DNA of 64,000 nucleotides from Escherichia coli (GTDB lineage Bacteria > Pseudomonadota > Gammaproteobacteria > Enterobacterales > Enterobacteriaceae), in assembly GCF_051903065.1 (NCBI RefSeq), contig NZ_CP178438.1. One strand, given 5' to 3'. Positions 20,217 to 59,366 of this stretch are shown here, in pieces. Position 1 is the stretch's first letter; every line of letters begins with the position of its first letter. Below the pieces are notes generated by a model. That model searched no databases, was not told where the DNA came from, and saw nothing but the letters and a program-made list of their open reading frames with translations. The position numbers and the translations under genes were made by a program.

Positions 20217-20352
20217 ATGTCTTAAACGGTTAACCACGGTCGAAATCTGACTGCAGGCTTGACTGCATGACCACAACCACTGTGGATTGCCGCGACCGGT
20301 GATGCTGCCAACTTACTGATTTAGTGTATGATGGTGTTTTTGAGGTGCTCCA

Positions 20353-20628
20353 GTGGCTTCTGTTTCTATCAGCTGTCCCTCCTGTTCAGCTACTGACGGG
20401 GTGGTGCGTAACGGCAAAAGCACCGCCGGACATCAGCGCTATCTCTGCTCTCACTGCCGTAAAACATGGCAACTGCAGTTCACTTACACCGCTTCTCAAC
20501 CCGGTACGCACCAGAAAATCATTGATATGGCCATGAATGGCGTTGGATGCCGGGCAACAGCCCGCATTATGGGCGTTGGCCTCAACACGATTTTACGTCA
20601 CTTAAAAAACTCAGGCCGCAGTCGGTAA
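20353..20628 (+). CDS. insA: IS1 InsA (transposition inhibitor, N-terminal part of InsAB' transposase)
   Basis: 91-aa [25 protein letters not shown]... recognised IS1 InsA. Confidence 0.9.
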
Positions 20629-21050
20629 CCTCGCGCATACAGCCGGGCAGTGACGTCATCGTCTGCGCGGAAATGGACGAACAGTGGGGCTATGTCGGGG
20701 CTAAATCGCGCCAGCGCTGGCTGTTTTACGCGTATGACAGGCTCCGGAAGACGGTTGTTGCGCACGTATTCGGTGAACGCACTATGGCGACGCTGGGGCG
20801 TCTTATGAGCCTGCTGTCACCCTTTGACGTGGTGATATGGATGACGGATGGCTGGCCGCTGTATGAATCCCGCCTGAAGGGAAAGCTGCACGTAATCAGC
20901 AAGCGATATACGCAGCGAATTGAGCGGCATAACCTGAATCTGAGGCAGCACCTGGCACGGCTGGGACGGAAGTCGCTGTCGTTCTCAAAATCGGTGGAGC
21001 TGCATGACAAAGTCATCGGGCATTATCTGAACATAAAACACTATCAATAA
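20547..21050 (+). CDS. insB: IS1 InsB reading frame (expressed as InsAB' via -1 frameshift)
   Basis: Overlapping -1 frame ORF; slippery A-run (TTAAAAAACTC) at about 20603 in the insA/insB overlap. Confidence 0.85.
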
Positions 21051-21560
21051 GTTGGAGTCATTACCGCCGCGACCGACCGCAAGCCACGAATAAGAACGAC
21101 GGCGAATTTCGAATCGTTACCTGATGCACTGGCTTCCCAGCGTTTGACCGTAGCGTTAAGTAAATCAACAAAAGCGATGTTCACCGCTTTTCGTCAAGTC
21201 GTGCCATTTGTCAGCCAGGATCGGGTCTTTACCCCGGATATTGCAGCATCGCAAAAATTCTTAGATGGATATGCTATAAATCAAAAATAAAATCTTTGTT
21301 GATTGTTTATCATAATATCCACAGATATGATAAATGATATCAATTTAATAATTTTCACTTAATGTGATTCCGGATAATTCGAAAGGCGCTGTGCTTTTCG
21401 GATTATTATTATCTGATTAAGATATTTGTCACGCCAGCCTTACTGGTTTATAAATGTCAATCATGATTCTTATAAATTATTTATTGCTGCTTTGGTTACC
21501 ATTACTTCGTAATAAGTAATGTATTTTTGATGGTTTAAACTATTTTTAAGGGACGGCATT

Positions 21561-22153
21561 ATGCGAGGGAAAATACCTAAAACGGAACTGCTGGTGACTT
21601 TTGAGGTCGTCGCACGTCATGAAAGTTATACCAGAGCGGCAGAGGAGTTAGCGTTAACCCAAAGTGCAGTATTCAGACAAGTAAGTGCGCTGGAGGAATT
21701 TTTACGTACTCCGTTATTTTCACACTCTAAAAAACGCATTTTTCTTAATGATACAGGGAAGTATTACCTGGGGATAGTAAAAGAAACATTAAATAAGCTG
21801 GAACGCGATACCAATACCATTATGACCTGGCAGCCTACGGTTCAGGTTATTGAACTTGCCGTTAATCCTACTTTTAGTACCCACTGGTTGATCCCAAATT
21901 TACATGAATTCACAAAGTTACATCCCGATATTATTGTTAATATTCATTCTTTAGCTAATAACGGCGATTTTCTTAATCGGGAGTACGATGCTGTCATTAT
22001 GCGCGAAAATTTTTGCGCGCCCTGGGCGGAAGTAGAATATCTCTTTGATGAGGAGATTTTGCCGGTATGCAGCGGCAGTTTGCTTGCAATGTCCGATCAA
22101 AAGCTGTCAGTGGCAGAACTGCTTACTGAGTTACCGCTTCTGCATCAAAGCAC
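21561..22153 (+). pseudogene. LysR-family transcriptional regulator gene, 3'-truncated by IS903-type element
   Basis: N-terminal LysR-type HTH (ESYTRAAEELALTQSAVFRQVSALEE) and start of substrate-binding domain; frame runs straight into the IS inverted repeat at 22154; about 200 codons of an expected roughly 300. Confidence 0.7.
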
Positions 22154-23210
22154 GGCTTTGTTGAATAAATCAGATTTCGGGTAAGTCTCCCCCGTAGCGG
22201 GTTGTGTTTTCAGGCAATACGCACGCTTTCAGGCATACCTGCTTTCGTCATTTTGTTCAGCGCTCGTACCAGGGCCATAGCCTCTGCAACCTGACCATCG
22301 TAGTCACGCAGTGTCAGTGAACCCCCGAACAGCTGTTTTACCCGGTACATCGCCGTTTCCGCTATCGAGCGACGGTTGTAATCTGTTGTCCATTTCCACC
22401 GCGCATTACTCCCGGTCATTCGCTGATTAGCCACTGCACGGTTACGGTCTGCATATTCACCGGGCCAGTAACCCGCACCTTTTCGGGGAGGGATAAGCGC
22501 GCTGATTTTCTTACGCCGCAGTTCATCGTGACATAGCCGGGTATCGTAAGCGCCATCGGCGGCGGCTGACCTGATTTTCCGGTGGGTTTGCCGGATTAAC
22601 CCGGGGAAGGCCTCTGAGTCCGTAACGTTGTTCAGCGACAGGTCAGCGCAGATGATTTCATGTGTTTTACTGTCAACGGCGAGATGCAGCTTACGCCAGA
22701 TACGGCGGCGTTCCTGGCCATGCTTTTTGACTTTCCACTCGCCTTCACCGAAGACCTTCAGCCCGGTGGAATCAATTACCAGGTGTGCGATTTCACCCCG
22801 GGTGGGCGTTTTGAAACTGACATTAACCGACTTTGCCCGCCTGCTGACACAGCTGTAATCCGGGCAGCGTAGCGGAACGTTCATCAGAGAAAAAATGGAA
22901 TCAATAAAGCCCTGCGCAGCGCGCAGGGTCAGCCTGAATACGCGTTTAATGACCAGCACAGTCGTGATGGCAAGGTCAGAATAGCGCTGAGGTCTGCCTC
23001 GTGAAGAAGGTGTTGCTGACTCATACCAGGCCTGAATAGCTTCATCATCCAGCCAGAAAGTTATGGAGCCACGGTTGATGAGGGCTTTATTGTAGGTGGG
23101 CCAGTTGGTGATTTTGAACTTTTGCTTTGCCACGGAACGGTCTGCGTTGTCGGGAAGATACGTGATCTGATCCTTCAACTCAGCAAAAGTTCGATTTATT
23201 CAACAAAGCC
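22154..23210 (-). mobile_element. IS903-type insertion sequence (IS5 family), 1057 bp, no target-site duplication
   Basis: 18-bp terminal inverted repeats GGCTTTGTTGAATAAATC at both ends; single transposase ORF; flanks TCAAAGCAC vs ATTTATCAG do not match. Confidence 0.85.
22210..23133 (-). CDS. IS903-type transposase (DDE, IS5 family)
   Basis: ORF ending ...KAGMPESVRIA, recognised as IS903 transposase; start placed at the GTG giving 307 aa (longest ORF extends to 23178). Confidence 0.85.
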   Translation of the reverse strand: MAKQKFKITNWPTYNKALINRGSITFWLDDEAIQAWYESATPSSRGRPQRYSDLAITTVLVIKRVFRLTLRAAQGFIDSIFSLMNVPLRCPDYSCVSRRAKSVNVSFKTPTRGEIAHLVIDSTGLKVFGEGEWKVKKHGQERRRIWRKLHLAVDSKTHEIICADLSLNNVTDSEAFPGLIRQTHRKIRSAAADGAYDTRLCHDELRRKKISALIPPRKGAGYWPGEYADRNRAVANQRMTGSNARWKWTTDYNRRSIAETAMYRVKQLFGGSLTLRDYDGQVAEAMALVRALNKMTKAGMPESVRIA

Positions 23211-23581
23211 ATTTATCAGGCGAAAGTGGCCTCTGTTCACTCAGAAACAATCACTCCCGGTAAGTCATACCTGTTTCATCGATACATTTAAGTGATTATT
23301 ACTAATGAAACAATAACATAACGGGCTTACGGTCGGTGCTCATAAAGGCAACAATCAATTAACTTTGATAAAAATATGTTATGTAAAATAGCAACAAATT
23401 GGCTACTCTAATCAATTGGTATTATAAAAAGTTGATTGGGCGGTTCTGTTAAATAAAACACTGGTTTTTTATCTATACCTTTTCATTGTAATAATTGTGT
23501 TGCATAAATATTTCACAATAAATTAACAATAAAATCACCAATGATCTATGGTTTATACATAATTAACATATTTGGTTGGTT

Positions 23582-27226: not shown

Positions 27227-28320
<1,094 letters not shown>

Positions 28321-28323
28321 GCC

Positions 28324-28752
28324 ATGGCCAGAGCGCGTGGACGAGGTCGTCGCGATCTCAAGTCCGAAATCAACATTGTACCGTTGCTGGACGTACTGCT
28401 GGTGCTGTTGCTGATCTTTATGGCGACAGCGCCCATCATCACCCAGAGCGTGGAGGTCGATCTGCCAGACGCTACTGAATCACAGGCGGTGAGCAGTAAC
28501 GATAATCCGCCAGTGATTGTTGAAGTGTCTGGTATTGGTCAGTACACCGTAGTGGTTGAGAAAGATCGCCTTGAGCGTTTACCACCAGAGCAGGTGGTGG
28601 CGGAAGTGTCCAGCCGTTTCAAGGCCAACCCGAAAACGGTCTTTCTGATCGGTGGCGCAAAAGATGTGCCTTACGATGAAATAATTAAAGCACTGAACTT
28701 GTTACATAGTGCGGGTGTGAAATCGGTTGGTTTAATGACGCAGCCTATCTAA
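28324..28752 (+). CDS. tolR: Tol-Pal system protein TolR
   Basis: 142-aa ORF, ExbD/TolR-like. Confidence 0.97.
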   Translation: MARARGRGRRDLKSEINIVPLLDVLLVLLLIFMATAPIITQSVEVDLPDATESQAVSSNDNPPVIVEVSGIGQYTVVVEKDRLERLPPEQVVAEVSSRFKANPKTVFLIGGAKDVPYDEIIKALNLLHSAGVKSVGLMTQPI

Positions 28753-28816
28753 ACATCTGCGTTTCCCTTGCTTGAAAGAGAGCGGGTAACAGGCGAACAG
28801 TTTTTGGAAACCGAGA

Positions 28817-30097
28817 GTGTCAAAGGCAACCGAACAAAACGACAAGCTCAAGCGGGCGATAATTATTTCAGCAGTGCTGCATGTCATCTTATTTGCGGCG
28901 CTGATCTGGAGTTCGTTCGATGAGAATATAGAAGCTTCAGCCGGAGGCGGCGGTGGTTCGTCCATCGACGCTGTCATGGTTGATTCAGGTGCGGTAGTTG
29001 AGCAGTACAAACGCATGCAAAGCCAGGAATCAAGCGCGAAGCGTTCTGATGAGCAGCGCAAGATGAAGGAACAGCAGGCTGCTGAAGAACTGCGTGAGAA
29101 ACAAGCGGCTGAACAGGAACGCCTGAAGCAACTTGAGAAAGAGCGGTTAGCTGCTCAGGAACAGAAAAAGCAGGCTGAAGAAGCCGCAAAACAGGCCGAG
29201 TTAAAGCAGAAGCAAGCGGAAGAGGCGGCAGCGAAAGCGGCGGCAGATGCTAAAGCGAAGGCCGAAGCGGATGCTAAAGCTGCGGAAGAAGCAGCGAAGA
29301 AAGCGGCTGCAGACGCGAAGAAAAAAGCAGAAGCAGAAGCCGCCAAAGCCGCAGCCGAAGCGCAGAAAAAAGCCGAGGCAGCAGCTGCGGCGCTGAAGAA
29401 GAAAGCGGAAGCGGCAGAAGCAGCTGCAGCTGAAGCAAGAAAGAAAGCGGCAACTGAAGCTGCTGAAAAAGCCAAGGCAGAAGCTGAGAAGAAAGCGGCT
29501 GCTGAAAAGGCTGCAGCTGATAAGAAAGCGGCAGCAGAGAAAGCTGCAGCCGACAAAAAAGCAGCAGAAAAAGCGGCTGCAGAAAAGGCAGCAGCTGATA
29601 AGAAAGCAGCGGCAGAAAAAGCCGCCGCAGACAAAAAAGCGGCAGCTGCAAAAGCAGCAGCTGAAAAAGCAGCAGCTGAAAAAGCCGCTGCAGCAAAAGC
29701 TGCCGCAGAGGCAGATGATATTTTCGGTGAGCTAAGCTCTGGTAAGAATGCACCGAAAACGGGGGGAGGGGCGAAAGGGAACAATGCTTCGCCTGCCGGG
29801 AGTGGTAATACTAAAAACAATGGCGCATCAGGGGCCGATATCAATAACTATGCCGGGCAGATTAAATCTGCTATCGAAAGTAAGTTCTATGACGCATCGT
29901 CCTATGCAGGCAAAACCTGTACGCTGCGCATAAAACTGGCACCCGATGGTATGTTACTGGATATCAAACCTGAAGGTGGCGATCCCGCACTTTGTCAAGC
30001 TGCGTTGGCAGCAGCTAAACTTGCGAAGATCCCGAAACCACCAAGCCAGGCAGTATATGAAGTGTTCAAAAACGCGCCATTGGACTTCAAACCGTAA
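28817..30097 (+). CDS. tolA: Tol-Pal system protein TolA (426 codons here)
   Basis: GTG start; N-terminal transmembrane anchor, long Ala/Lys/Glu-rich helical domain II, C-terminal domain III. Confidence 0.95.
   Translation: MSKATEQNDKLKRAIIISAVLHVILFAALIWSSFDENIEASAGGGGGSSIDAVMVDSGAVVEQYKRMQSQESSAKRSDEQRKMKEQQAAEELREKQAAEQERLKQLEKERLAAQEQKKQAEEAAKQAELKQKQAEEAAAKAAADAKAKAEADAKAAEEAAKKAAADAKKKAEAEAAKAAAEAQKKAEAAAAALKKKAEAAEAAAAEARKKAATEAAEKAKAEAEKKAAAEKAAADKKAAAEKAAADKKAAEKAAAEKAAADKKAAAEKAAADKKAAAAKAAAEKAAAEKAAAAKAAAEADDIFGELSSGKNAPKTGGGAKGNNASPAGSGNTKNNGASGADINNYAGQIKSAIESKFYDASSYAGKTCTLRIKLAPDGMLLDIKPEGGDPALCQAALAAAKLAKIPKPPSQAVYEVFKNAPLDFKP
29480..29700 (+). repeat. Imperfect tandem coding repeats in tolA domain II
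   Basis: Reiterated GCNGCNGARAARGCNGCNGCNGAYAARAAR units encoding (K)AAAEKAAADKK. Confidence 0.7.
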
Positions 30098-30229
30098 TCG
30101 CGATGCTGACTGTTCCGACGGTCAACATCAGGCACCGGTTGCCACGGGGTTCTGGTAGTTTTGTGTATTTTAGTTTGTTAACATTCTGCTAAATTATCGT
30201 GGGCCATCGGTCCAGATAAGGGAGATATG

Positions 30230-31522
30230 ATGAAGCAGGCATTACGAGTAGCATTTGGTTTTCTCATATTGTGGGCATCAGTTCTTCATGCTGAAGTCCG
30301 CATTGTGATCGACAGCGGTGTAGATTCCGGTCGTCCTATTGGAGTTGTTCCTTTCCAGTGGGCGGGCCCTGGTGCGGCACCTGAAGATATTGGCGGCATC
30401 GTTGCTGCCGACTTGCGTAACAGCGGTAAATTTAATCCGTTAGATCGCGCTCGTCTGCCACAGCAGCCGGGTAGTGCGCAGGAAGTACAACCAGCTGCAT
30501 GGTCCGCGCTGGGTATTGACGCTGTAGTTGTCGGTCAGGTCACTCCGAATCCGGATGGTTCTTACAATGTTGCTTATCAACTTGTTGACACTGGCGGCGC
30601 ACCGGGTACTGTACTTGCTCAGAACTCGTACAAAGTGAACAAGCAGTGGCTGCGTTATGCTGGTCATACCGCCAGTGATGAAGTGTTTGAAAAACTGACC
30701 GGTATTAAAGGTGCGTTCCGTACCCGTATTGCCTACGTTGTTCAGACCAACGGCGGTCAGTTCCCGTATGAACTGCGCGTATCTGACTATGACGGTTACA
30801 ACCAGTTTGTCGTTCACCGTTCACCACAGCCGCTGATGTCCCCGGCGTGGTCACCAGACGGTTCTAAACTGGCTTATGTGACCTTCGAAAGCGGTCGTTC
30901 CGCGCTGGTTATCCAAACGCTGGCAAACGGCGCTGTACGTCAGGTGGCTTCATTCCCGCGTCACAACGGTGCGCCTGCATTCTCGCCAGACGGCAGCAAA
31001 CTGGCATTCGCGTTGTCGAAAACCGGTAGCCTGAACCTGTACGTAATGGATTTGGCTTCTGGTCAGATCCGCCAGGTGACTGATGGTCGCAGTAACAATA
31101 CCGAACCGACCTGGTTCCCGGACAGCCAGAACCTGGCATTTACTTCTGACCAGGCCGGTCGTCCACAGGTTTATAAAGTGAATATCAACGGCGGTGCGCC
31201 ACAACGTATTACCTGGGAAGGTTCGCAGAACCAGGATGCGGATGTCAGCAGCGACGGTAAATTTATGGTAATGGTCAGCTCCAACGGTGGGCAGCAGCAC
31301 ATTGCCAAACAAGATCTGGCAACGGGAGGCGTACAAGTTCTGTCGTCCACGTTCCTGGATGAAACGCCAAGTCTGGCACCTAACGGCACTATGGTAATCT
31401 ACAGCTCTTCTCAGGGGATGGGATCCGTGCTGAATTTGGTTTCTACAGATGGGCGTTTCAAAGCGCGTCTTCCGGCAACTGATGGACAGGTCAAATTCCC
31501 TGCCTGGTCGCCGTATCTGTGA
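30230..31522 (+). CDS. tolB: Tol-Pal system periplasmic protein TolB
   Basis: Recognised TolB sequence; start placed at the second Met (MKQALRV). Confidence 0.95.
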
Positions 31523-31532
31523 TAATAATTAA

Positions 31533-32078
<546 letters not shown>

Positions 32079-32087
32079 GAGAATTGC

Positions 32088-32879
32088 ATGAGCAGTAACT
32101 TCAGACATCAACTATTGAGTCTGTCGTTACTGGTTGGTATAGCGGCCCCCTGGGCCGCTTTTGCTCAGGCACCAATCAGTAGTGTCGGCTCAGGCTCGGT
32201 CGAAGACCGCGTCACTCAACTTGAGCGTATTTCTAATGCTCACAGCCAGCTTTTAACCCAACTCCAGCAACAACTCTCTGATAATCAATCCGATATTGAT
32301 TCCCTGCGTGGTCAGATTCAGGAAAATCAGTATCAACTGAATCAGGTCGTGGAGCGGCAAAAGCAGATCCTGTTGCAGATCGACAGCCTCAGCAGCGGTG
32401 GTGCAGCGGCGCAATCAACCAGCGGTGATCAAAGCGGTGCGGCGGCATCAACGACGCCGACAGCTGATGCTGGTACTGCGAATGCTGGCGCGCCGGTGAA
32501 AAGCGGTGATGCAAACACGGATTACAATGCAGCTATTGCGCTGGTGCAGGATAAATCCCGCCAGGATGACGCAATGGTGGCATTTCAGAATTTCATCAAA
32601 AATTACCCTGATTCAACTTACCTGCCAAACGCCAATTATTGGCTGGGTCAGTTAAACTACAACAAGGGTAAAAAAGATGATGCGGCGTACTATTTTGCTT
32701 CGGTAGTGAAAAACTATCCGAAGTCACCAAAGGCTGCAGATGCGATGTTTAAAGTCGGCGTCATCATGCAGGACAAAGGTGACACCGCAAAAGCGAAAGC
32801 CGTATACCAGCAGGTTATCAGTAAATACCCTGGTACTGATGGCGCTAAACAGGCGCAAAAACGTCTGAACGCGATGTAA
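32088..32879 (+). CDS. cpoB: Cell-division coordinator CpoB (YbgF), TPR protein
   Basis: 263-aa ORF with signal peptide, coiled-coil and TPR regions. Confidence 0.95.
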   Translation: MSSNFRHQLLSLSLLVGIAAPWAAFAQAPISSVGSGSVEDRVTQLERISNAHSQLLTQLQQQLSDNQSDIDSLRGQIQENQYQLNQVVERQKQILLQIDSLSSGGAAAQSTSGDQSGAAASTTPTADAGTANAGAPVKSGDANTDYNAAIALVQDKSRQDDAMVAFQNFIKNYPDSTYLPNANYWLGQLNYNKGKKDDAAYYFASVVKNYPKSPKAADAMFKVGVIMQDKGDTAKAKAVYQQVISKYPGTDGAKQAQKRLNAM

Positions 32880-33042
32880 TGCATAACACACGACCAGAAG
32901 TCGCATTATTTCTGGTCGTGTCGTGCGAATCATAAGCAGTTGAGTGATCTACATCGAAATTTTTGTTGCGCTCAAGTCTGAAATCAGTAATATATGCCGC
33001 CGTTGCCACGGGATATCAAACAAACCGAAAGCAACGAAAAGT

Positions 33043-33118
33043 GGGTCGTTAGCTCAGTTGGTAGAGCAGTTGACTTTTAATCAATTGGTCGCAGGTTCGA
33101 ATCCTGCACGACCCACCA
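33043..33118 (+). tRNA. lysT: tRNA-Lys (anticodon UUU)
   Basis: 76 nt, GGGTCGTTAGCTCAGTTGGTAGAGC...CUUUUAAUC anticodon loop...CACCA. Confidence 0.95.
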
Positions 33119-33153
33119 CTAACCTAGTTAGTTGTAGTATCCAGCGTAGTATC

Positions 33154-33229
33154 GGGTGATTAGCTCAGCTGGGAGAGCACCTCCCTTACAAGGAGGGGGT
33201 CGGCGGTTCGATCCCGTCATCACCCACCA
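33154..33229 (+). tRNA. valT: tRNA-Val (anticodon UAC)
   Basis: 76 nt, GGGTGATTAGCTCAGCTGGGAGAGC...CUUACAAGG anticodon loop...CACCA. Confidence 0.95.
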
Positions 33230-33231
33230 CC

Positions 33232-33307
33232 GGGTCGTTAGCTCAGTTGGTAGAGCAGTTGACTTTTAATCAATTGGTCGCAGGTTCGAATCCTGCACGA
33301 CCCACCA
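33232..33307 (+). tRNA. lysW: tRNA-Lys (UUU)
   Basis: Identical copy of the tRNA-Lys sequence. Confidence 0.95.
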
Positions 33308-33358
33308 CTAATTACGGTGGGTTCGGTGGAAGTAGTTTGTAGTATCCAGCGCAGTATC

Positions 33359-33434
33359 GGGTGATTAGCTCAGCTGGGAGAGCACCTCCCTTACAAGGAG
33401 GGGGTCGGCGGTTCGATCCCGTCATCACCCACCA
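33359..33434 (+). tRNA. valZ: tRNA-Val (UAC)
   Basis: Identical copy of the tRNA-Val sequence. Confidence 0.95.
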
Positions 33435-33437
33435 CTC

Positions 33438-33513
33438 GGGTCGTTAGCTCAGTTGGTAGAGCAGTTGACTTTTAATCAATTGGTCGCAGGTTCGAATCCT
33501 GCACGACCCACCA
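33438..33513 (+). tRNA. lysY: tRNA-Lys (UUU)
   Basis: Identical copy of the tRNA-Lys sequence. Confidence 0.95.
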
Positions 33514-33593
33514 ATTTTAACATCAAACTCAGATGTTAAGCGTGAAGGATAACGTTGCGCCAGCAACGGCCCGTAGGGCGAGCGAAGCGAGTC

Positions 33594-33611
33594 ATCCTGC
33601 ACGACCCACCA
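33594..33611 (+). other. Orphan 18-nt copy of the tRNA-Lys 3' end (ATCCTGCACGACCCACCA) in the lysY-lysZ spacer
   Basis: Exact match to the last 18 nt of the tRNA-Lys genes with no upstream tRNA body. Confidence 0.6.
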
Positions 33612-33659
33612 ATCTTAAAGATTGGCCCCGAGTAAAAATCTTTCAGGTAACACCCGTAT

Positions 33660-33735
33660 GGGTCGTTAGCTCAGTTGGTAGAGCAGTTGACTTTTAATCA
33701 ATTGGTCGCAGGTTCGAATCCTGCACGACCCACCA
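33660..33735 (+). tRNA. lysZ: tRNA-Lys (UUU)
   Basis: Identical copy of the tRNA-Lys sequence. Confidence 0.95.
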
Positions 33736-33768
33736 TCCTGAATGATTAAAGCAGCATAATCCCGCAAG

Positions 33769-33844
33769 GGGTCGTTAGCTCAGTTGGTAGAGCAGTTGAC
33801 TTTTAATCAATTGGTCGCAGGTTCGAATCCTGCACGACCCACCA
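33769..33844 (+). tRNA. lysQ: tRNA-Lys (UUU)
   Basis: Identical copy of the tRNA-Lys sequence. Confidence 0.95.
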
Positions 33845-33850
33845 ATGTAA

Positions 33851-33876
33851 AAAAGCGCCCTAAAGGCGCTTTTTTG
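33851..33876 (+). terminator. Rho-independent terminator of the lysT tRNA operon
   Basis: Hairpin AGCGCC-CTAA-AGGCGCT followed by TTTTT. Confidence 0.7.
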
Positions 33877-34030
33877 CTATTCAGGCATCTCTCAATTTCA
33901 ATTCTTGACCCTGATGACATACTCCGCGCTTGCTGCGTAAACAACTTTACGTCGGAGGAATAAGACGCAAAGTGTGGCATTCGGCATCTCATACGTAATT
34001 CGAGTGACTTTTCCCCACCATTCGACTATC

Positions 34031-59278: not shown

Positions 59279-59366
59279 GCTTTTTTATACTAAGTTGGCC
59301 TTATAAAAAAGCATTGCTTATCAATTTGTTGCAACGAACAGGTCACTATCAGTCAAAATAAAATCA
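59279..59366. other. Lambda attL: bacterial B arm, 15-bp core GCTTTTTTATACTAA (59279-59293), then phage P' arm
   Basis: Host-side sequence CTGC + core as in attB, followed by GTTGGCCTTATAAAAAAGCATTGCTTATCAATTTGTTGCAACGAACAGGTCACTATCAGTCAAAATAAAATCATTATTTGATTTC, recognised as the lambda P' arm. Confidence 0.85.

Follow-up and report, generated by a model that had tools for sequence, protein, structure and literature searches.

A rare 14-unit allele of the Escherichia coli tolA tandem repeat, very probably derived from a 13-unit ancestor by gain of a single 15-nt unit

The tolA gene within the 64,000-nt stretch of Escherichia coli DNA analysed here (hereafter the window) encodes a protein five residues longer than that of K-12, which raises the question of whether a repeat unit was genuinely gained, by which route, and how often comparable gains have occurred in the species. 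A first-pass annotation, made from the sequence alone, had noticed a tandem repeat at 29480-29700 within a 426-codon tolA and, taking the K-12 TolA as 421 aa, had proposed one extra 5-aa unit arisen by slipped-strand variation in the helical linker. According to our results, the window very probably carries a rare 14-unit allele of an already known tolA repeat, in which a 13-unit ancestor gained a copy of unit 11, most likely by slippage. The features on which this reading is based are the following:

28817-30097, plus strand: tolA coding sequence, 426 codons plus stop, with a GTG start, from the open reading frame list
29204-29488, plus strand: Ala/Lys/Glu repeats of domain II that precede the 14-unit tract and are older and more degenerate than it (Tandem Repeats Finder periods 12-45, 65-88% matches)
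29489-29710, plus strand: tract of 14 tandem units, each of 15 or 18 nt and in frame, TolA residues 225-298, delimited by Tandem Repeats Finder, unit parsing and shuffles
29650-29685, plus strand: perfect period-15 stretch of 36 nt, formed by the duplicated 15-mer and the 6-nt AAAAGC microhomology
29651-29665, plus strand: first copy of the duplicated unit AAAGCAGCAGCTGAA, encoding KAAAE, residues 279-283; unit 11 in K-12 numbering
29666-29680, plus strand: second copy of AAAGCAGCAGCTGAA, encoding KAAAE, residues 284-288, identical to the first

The assignment of the gene was supported by its product, its annotation elsewhere and its neighbourhood. The C-terminus of the protein matched Pfam PF06519 (TolA domain III) at residues 330-424 (E=2e-38; 130.9 bits vs a cut-off of 25), model helices at residues 2-34, 60-206 and 211-307 correspond to the membrane anchor and helical domain II, and residues 120-298 are composed of 54% Ala, 23% Lys and 15% Glu, these three amounting together to 92%. 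Alleles identical to that of the window carry the tolA annotation in RefSeq genomes, and the protein is already in RefSeq as WP_001624913.1; an exact look-up of the 426-aa sequence in a collection of 15 billion proteins, including a version with Met as first residue, gave no match, which, given the RefSeq entry, we read as rarity or a coverage gap. The open reading frames at 27227-32879 are collinear with K-12 at 98.1% identity (ybgC-tolQRA-tolB-pal-cpoB), with ybgC, tolQ and tolR upstream of tolA and tolB, pal and cpoB downstream, in K-12 order.

Other parts of the window depart from K-12 to a larger extent. Downstream of cpoB, the lysT-valT-lysW-valZ-lysY-lysZ-lysQ tRNA cluster (33040-33880) gave many overlapping self-similar K-12 matches and spans about 840 nt, vs about 1,100 nt in K-12 (780554-781652), which suggests that the tRNA copy number may differ between both genomes. 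At 20224-23557, K-12 mngR-mngA-mngB (about 5.9 kb between sucD/sdhX and cydA) is absent, and its place is occupied by an IS1A copy (InsB ORF 20547-21050), an IS903B transposase (22210-23178, minus strand) and, between both, a LysR-family regulator gene in truncated form (21561-22184). Strains 23CRST027 and 23CRST031 were the only ones to show this arrangement in full, with 100% identity along its entire length. Collinearity with K-12 stops just after ybhC, presumably the region of the lambda attachment site, and the remaining segment (59297-64000) contains a truncated lambda-like tyrosine integrase of 256 aa without its N-terminal part (59367-60137, minus strand), an IS481-family transposase (60196-61281), a 261-aa ORF with zero Pfam matches (61453-62238) and a 535-aa DUF6056 membrane protein (62266-63873, minus strand). 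This segment resembles the remains of a decayed prophage or island; ECNB21-M121, 23CRST027 and 23CRST031 were the only strains to match it at 100% along its entire length. The matches to these two variable regions indicate that the window belongs to the clone of 23CRST027 and 23CRST031, or to one very closely related to it. The fimbrial operon region pxpA-nei-abrB-ybgOPQD (69-7877) displayed 84.7% identity to K-12, vs 97-99% in the rest of the window, and represents a strongly divergent allele block, possibly recombinant.

Following Zhou et al. (PMC3477136), we defined a unit as 15 or 18 nt beginning with the Lys codon(s) and encoding K(K)AAA[E/D/A]. By this definition the tract, 222 nt in total, reads KKAAAE KAAAD KKAAAE KAAAD KKAAE KAAAE KAAAD KKAAAE KAAAD KKAAAA KAAAE KAAAE KAAAA KAAAE, and both its position and the 426-codon length of the gene agree closely with what the first-pass annotation had described. 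Tandem Repeats Finder reported overlapping arrays with periods of 15, 33 and 78 nt over 29474-29709 (scores 113-260), and the nucleotide self-identity of the tract at lags of 15, 33 and 78 nt reached 0.71, 0.67 and 0.76, respectively, vs 0.31 +/- 0.03 in the shuffled tract, whose maximum never exceeded 0.44. As a second null, the protein was kept constant and synonymous codons alone were shuffled; synonymous-codon agreement at a 26-codon lag was then found in 23 of 37 pairs, vs 15.0 +/- 2.7 expected (P=0.002), while it was marginal at 5 codons (P=0.03) and there was none at 6 or 11 codons. The tract is hence an old array, synonymously diverged, with a higher-order 78-nt duplication, to which one very fresh-looking event has been added.

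The anatomy of this event was resolved by comparison with K-12 MG1655 (b0739, NP_415267.1), whose tolA comprises 1266 nt and 421 aa, the length given in the first-pass annotation. The DNA alignment displayed 13 substitutions, all synonymous, and a single 15-nt gap. All 421 alignable residues are identical, so that MG1655 shares with the window every residue outside the insertion, as well as the operon context ybgC-tolQRA-tolB-pal-cpoB, and differs in those 13 nucleotides and in being without one KAAAE. The two proteins are hence neither of the same length (426 vs 421 aa) nor of the same sequence, and the extra 5-aa unit that had been suspected proved to be a single KAAAE, a 15-nt indel that repeats the adjacent unit perfectly in tandem. 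The insertion lies after K-12 residue 283 or, equivalently, 278, both copies being identical; the unit count is 14 in the window vs 13 in K-12, and the 15 nt missing from K-12 correspond to one of the two tandem AAAGCAGCAGCTGAA copies. Given the protein and the codon pool of the tract, the probability of two neighbouring units being identical is 0.013. From the length of the perfect period-15 run, 36 nt, it follows that a single unit was flanked by a 6-nt direct repeat, AAAAGC, before the duplication. An allele with these properties is carried by strain UCPROB-001, with 1266 nt, 13 units, exactly the synonymous haplotype of the window around the site and a single copy of the unit, and it corresponds to the expected progenitor, i.e., the pre-duplication state.

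To place this allele among those of the species, we drew on 5,426 complete E. coli genomes, a tolA match being present in all but one of them. At least 10 tolA lengths were found among the matches listed (1185, 1215, 1251, 1263, 1266, 1281, 1290, 1293, 1299 and 1311 nt), with 1215 nt assigned to O157:H7 and 1263 nt to ST131. The K-12 length was found in 25 of 40 genomes (~63%) taken as an evenly spaced sample of ranks among the 5,426, which is close to the published 66% with 13 units (Zhou et al., PMC3477136); the frequencies given here are based on evenly spaced ranks of the matches and on bands of identity. The match in E. coli NCTC9966 spans 1265 nt rather than 1266 and would be out of frame, which may reflect a sequencing error or a pseudogene. 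The reading frame is intact in all 15 retrieved alleles, whose differences amount to whole units or unit fusions; in some natural alleles deletions extend into the degenerate repeats upstream of the tract, and KKAATEAAEKAKAEAE is absent from the ST131, O157:H7 and MS20677 alleles. Units 12 and 13 (KAAAA KAAAE) are invariant in these 15 alleles, which fits the description by Zhou et al. (PMC3477136) of units 12-13 as never joining laboratory contractions. The comparison of tolA alleles across strains that the first-pass annotation had recommended thus revealed a copy number that varies widely within helical domain II, with the frame kept.

The frequency of the duplication itself was assessed with a 251-nt query centred on it and including unique flank, which gave a match in 5,424 genomes. 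From these, 5,264 fell in the 90-95% identity band, which corresponds to alignments with a 15-nt gap (236-nt spans in an evenly spaced sample), and only 42 (~0.8%) aligned over the 251 nt without a gap. The exact DNA arrangement of the window was found in only 6 of the 5,424 genomes, namely Res13-Sevr-PER07-33, ECNB21-M121, D8, 23CRST027, 23CRST031 and GF4-3, obtained from pig, meat, river water, human and guinea fowl sources. Four independent complete genomes contain the identical 1281-nt allele, and a further two share its arrangement; D8 and GF4-3 carry it on differing flanks, with 4 and 6 flank SNPs, respectively. Because the flanking haplotypes differ in these two strains, the window-type duplication would be either old or moved by recombination, and is not necessarily very recent.

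The other 426-aa alleles, when read unit by unit, turned out to be products of events different from that of the window. In SMS-3-5, the last 15 nt of unit 10 are perfectly copied (AAAGCGGCAGCTGCA twice), giving an extra KAAAA, and 2018-02-2CC carries the equivalent perfect copy on a K-12-like haplotype (AAAGCGGCAGCGGCA twice), both alleles encoding the same protein, WP_000030636.1. This 426-aa TolA, found in SMS-3-5 and about 30 other complete genomes, resembles that of the window in length and gain site, although its extra unit, KAAAA, perfectly repeats the final 15 nt of unit 10, whereas that of the window repeats unit 11; as the copied unit differs, its gain would be separate from that of the window. 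CUWW06 and A16 carry AAAGCAGCAGCTGCA, the expected product of a duplication shifted by 6 nt, and 14EC033 has two extra units of this kind. In G5, AAAGCTGCAGCTGAA is followed by AAAGCCGCAGCTGAA on a K-12-like haplotype, as expected from duplicating GCAGCTGAAAAAGCC, and the encoded protein is exactly that of the window, WP_001624913.1. Two DNA events therefore converge on each of two proteins, the window type and the G5 type on WP_001624913.1, and those of SMS-3-5 and 2018-02-2CC on WP_000030636.1. Since each arrangement can be explained, with zero substitutions, by a 15-nt duplication of its own haplotype, the most parsimonious reading is that 15-nt gains at units 10-12 had at least five separate origins; the alternative is one old gain at units 10-12, followed by gene conversion or recombination. 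In 14EC033 and strain 100416, this site holds two additional KAAAA units (266-nt span vs 251 nt), a double gain showing that the tract grows stepwise at the unit 10/11 boundary.

The consequences of an extra unit for the protein were approached with a single-sequence AF2 model of modest quality (pLDDT 70, pTM 0.28), from which secondary structure alone was used. The model predicts helices at residues 60-206 and 211-307, with a break at 207-210 inside a low-confidence stretch (204-212), and would place the repeat tract in the C-terminal arm of a helical hairpin. In standard helix geometry, five helical residues correspond to about 7.5 A. This helix-break-helix arrangement agrees with the published description of domain II as a helical hairpin of about 220 A that extends on energisation (PMC8928145), of which the added KAAAE, if helical, would represent roughly 3% of the length. 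The CpoB/YbgF-binding segment of TolA has been reported as residues 280-313 (PMC8928145), and the insertion, after K-12 residue 283 or 278, falls at its N-terminal edge. With regard to copy number, at least partial complementation of a tolA deletion was obtained with constructs of 2, 6, 8, 26 and 39 units; tolerance to deoxycholate grew with unit number (3.2-fold and 15.5-fold over 13 units for 26 and 39 units, respectively), and phage fd plated at 28-43% of the wild-type level whenever the construct had a unit number other than 13 (Zhou et al., PMC3477136). By interpolation among these constructs, any effect of 14 units on bile-salt tolerance, phage fd entry and CpoB binding should be small. 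An experiment relating linker length to phage uptake, which the first-pass annotation had proposed, is in large part already published in the same study (PMC3477136).

We propose that unit 11, AAAGCAGCAGCTGAA, was duplicated exactly, with a gain of 15 nt, in a 13-unit ancestor whose sequence is still present in UCPROB-001. The most likely route would be slipped-strand mispairing of the AAAAGC microhomologies on either side of the unit while the DNA was replicated. Being in frame, this gain lengthens by one KAAAE the C-terminal arm of the long helical hairpin, through which the anchor in the inner membrane is joined to domain III, the part that binds TolB and phage; the resulting 14-unit protein, otherwise that of K-12, is expected to be fully functional. 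The identical 15-nt copies bounded by a short direct microhomology, the 6-nt AAAAGC, have the form expected of a slippage product. The main competitor of slippage is RecA-dependent unequal recombination between misaligned units on sister chromosomes, which is consistent with the behaviour of the tract in the laboratory, where contractions occurred at a frequency of 6.9e-5 and were RecA-promoted, decreasing to 15% in recA (i.e., about 85% RecA-dependent), increasing 3.3-fold in uvrD and remaining unchanged in mutS (Zhou et al., PMC3477136). Those contractions, however, were mostly five-unit, 78-nt deletions, and the residual 15% in recA mutants indicates that a RecA-independent route exists; as for expansions, the same study recovered none from 150 colonies screened (PMC3477136). 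The blocks joined by the 78-nt deletions are homologous over long stretches, in agreement with the 26-codon-lag signal (P=0.002), whereas the misaligned partners of the present gain share a 6-nt exact flanking match only, and neighbouring units are identical at 13 of 15 positions. An exact match of 6 nt is well below the homology that RecA normally needs. Because the one-unit gain has far less homology than the 78-nt deletions, we infer that slippage is the somewhat probable route, with RecA-dependent exchange as a possible but distinctly less likely one.

The survey also bears on whether the unit was gained at all and whether it was then favoured. Assemblers can miscount repeats, but a tract of 222 nt with mutually differing units is easily spanned by reads, and the recovery of the identical allele in four independent complete genomes and of its arrangement in two more, with the frame intact, led us to reject a sequencing or assembly artefact, to which we assign next to no probability. 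An indel in a two-sequence alignment has no direction, and 14 units could in principle be the ancestral state, from which K-12 and most strains lost one; nevertheless, the single copy is found in >99% of genomes and in every haplotype sampled, among them phylogenetically remote ones (e.g., the O157:H7, ST131 and SMS-3-5 flanks), and synonymous sites differ among the older units but nowhere between the two copies, for which reasons this direction was likewise rejected as very improbable. A different matter is whether selection keeps the 14-unit allele, with an extra turn-and-a-half of helix tuning the reach of TolA or its CpoB binding in this lineage. The at least five origins of 15-nt gains at units 10-12, with their convergence on WP_001624913.1 and WP_000030636.1, and the location of the insertion at the edge of the CpoB-binding segment (residues 280-313) would be in line with this, as would the influence of copy number on stress tolerance in constructs (PMC3477136). 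Yet mutational instability alone predicts recurrence, all such alleles together amount to ~0.8% of genomes (42 of 5,424) with the window type in 6, its hosts, from pig to guinea fowl, are unrelated, and the published effects correspond to changes of at least five units, with 13 units judged optimal (PMC3477136); we thus regard selection as an unlikely reason for the presence of this allele. The broader proposal, that the unit 10-12 boundary is a preferred site of one-unit gains repeatedly retained by natural selection, seems to us slightly more doubtful still; if true, a slightly longer C-terminal helix arm would be advantageous in some niches.

The same tract gives rise to two long antisense open reading frames, which had been suspected to be spurious:

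29155-29844, minus strand: antisense ORF of 229 aa (45% Ala, 18% Ser, 17% Phe), low-complexity and wholly inside tolA
29274-29753, minus strand: antisense ORF of 159 aa (41% Leu), wholly inside tolA

Both exist as described, one being Ala/Ser/Phe-rich and the other Leu-rich. Antisense stops are few because the sense strand is Ala/Lys/Glu-rich and nearly without TTA, CTA and TCA triplets, which number eight in 690 nt across all three frames. Given their location, low complexity and the stop-poor composition imposed by the sense strand, we rejected them as candidate genes and read both as non-coding by-products of tolA codon composition; long antisense ORFs inside tolA should accordingly not be annotated as genes. 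In a similar manner, strain differences in tolA length should not be taken as annotation errors, and the tract could be used as a minor typing marker.

A survey of the E. coli tolA intragenic variable tandem repeat was reportedly published by Zhou, Vanoirbeek, Aertsen and Michiels (2012, Res Microbiol 163:316). The repeat-length polymorphism of tolA, its dynamics and its phenotypic effects have been known since 2012, and the window allele belongs to this variable tandem repeat, with head-to-tail in-frame units of 15 or 18 nt whose number varies among strains while the frame is kept. The report by Zhou, Michiels and Aertsen (2012, PLoS One 7:e47766; PMC3477136) concerns the same gene, the same tract, the same 15/18-nt units and the same in-frame copy-number change; its natural range among 234 isolates, from 8 to 16 units and with 66% of the isolates at 13, includes the 14 units of the window, and nothing in our allele is different in kind. 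Two details appear to go beyond that report, i.e., the gain of unit 11 next to units 12-13, which are described there as never involved in laboratory contractions, and the recurrence of unit 10-12 gains in several registers. Our contribution therefore consists of the exact anatomy of the event, its rarity (6 of 5,424 genomes) and the repeated one-unit gains at units 10-12 converging on two proteins, the recurrence of which is a modest addition that can be quantified by population genomics. With contingency loci and in-frame surface-protein repeats, such as the E. coli ahpC TCT and mutL CTGGCG repeats cited in the same report (PMC3477136), tolA shares a repeat-mediated, reversible, in-frame change; in contrast to contingency loci, it provides no on/off switch of expression, its units are long (15-18 nt) and imperfect, and its contraction rate is about 1e-5 to 1e-4.
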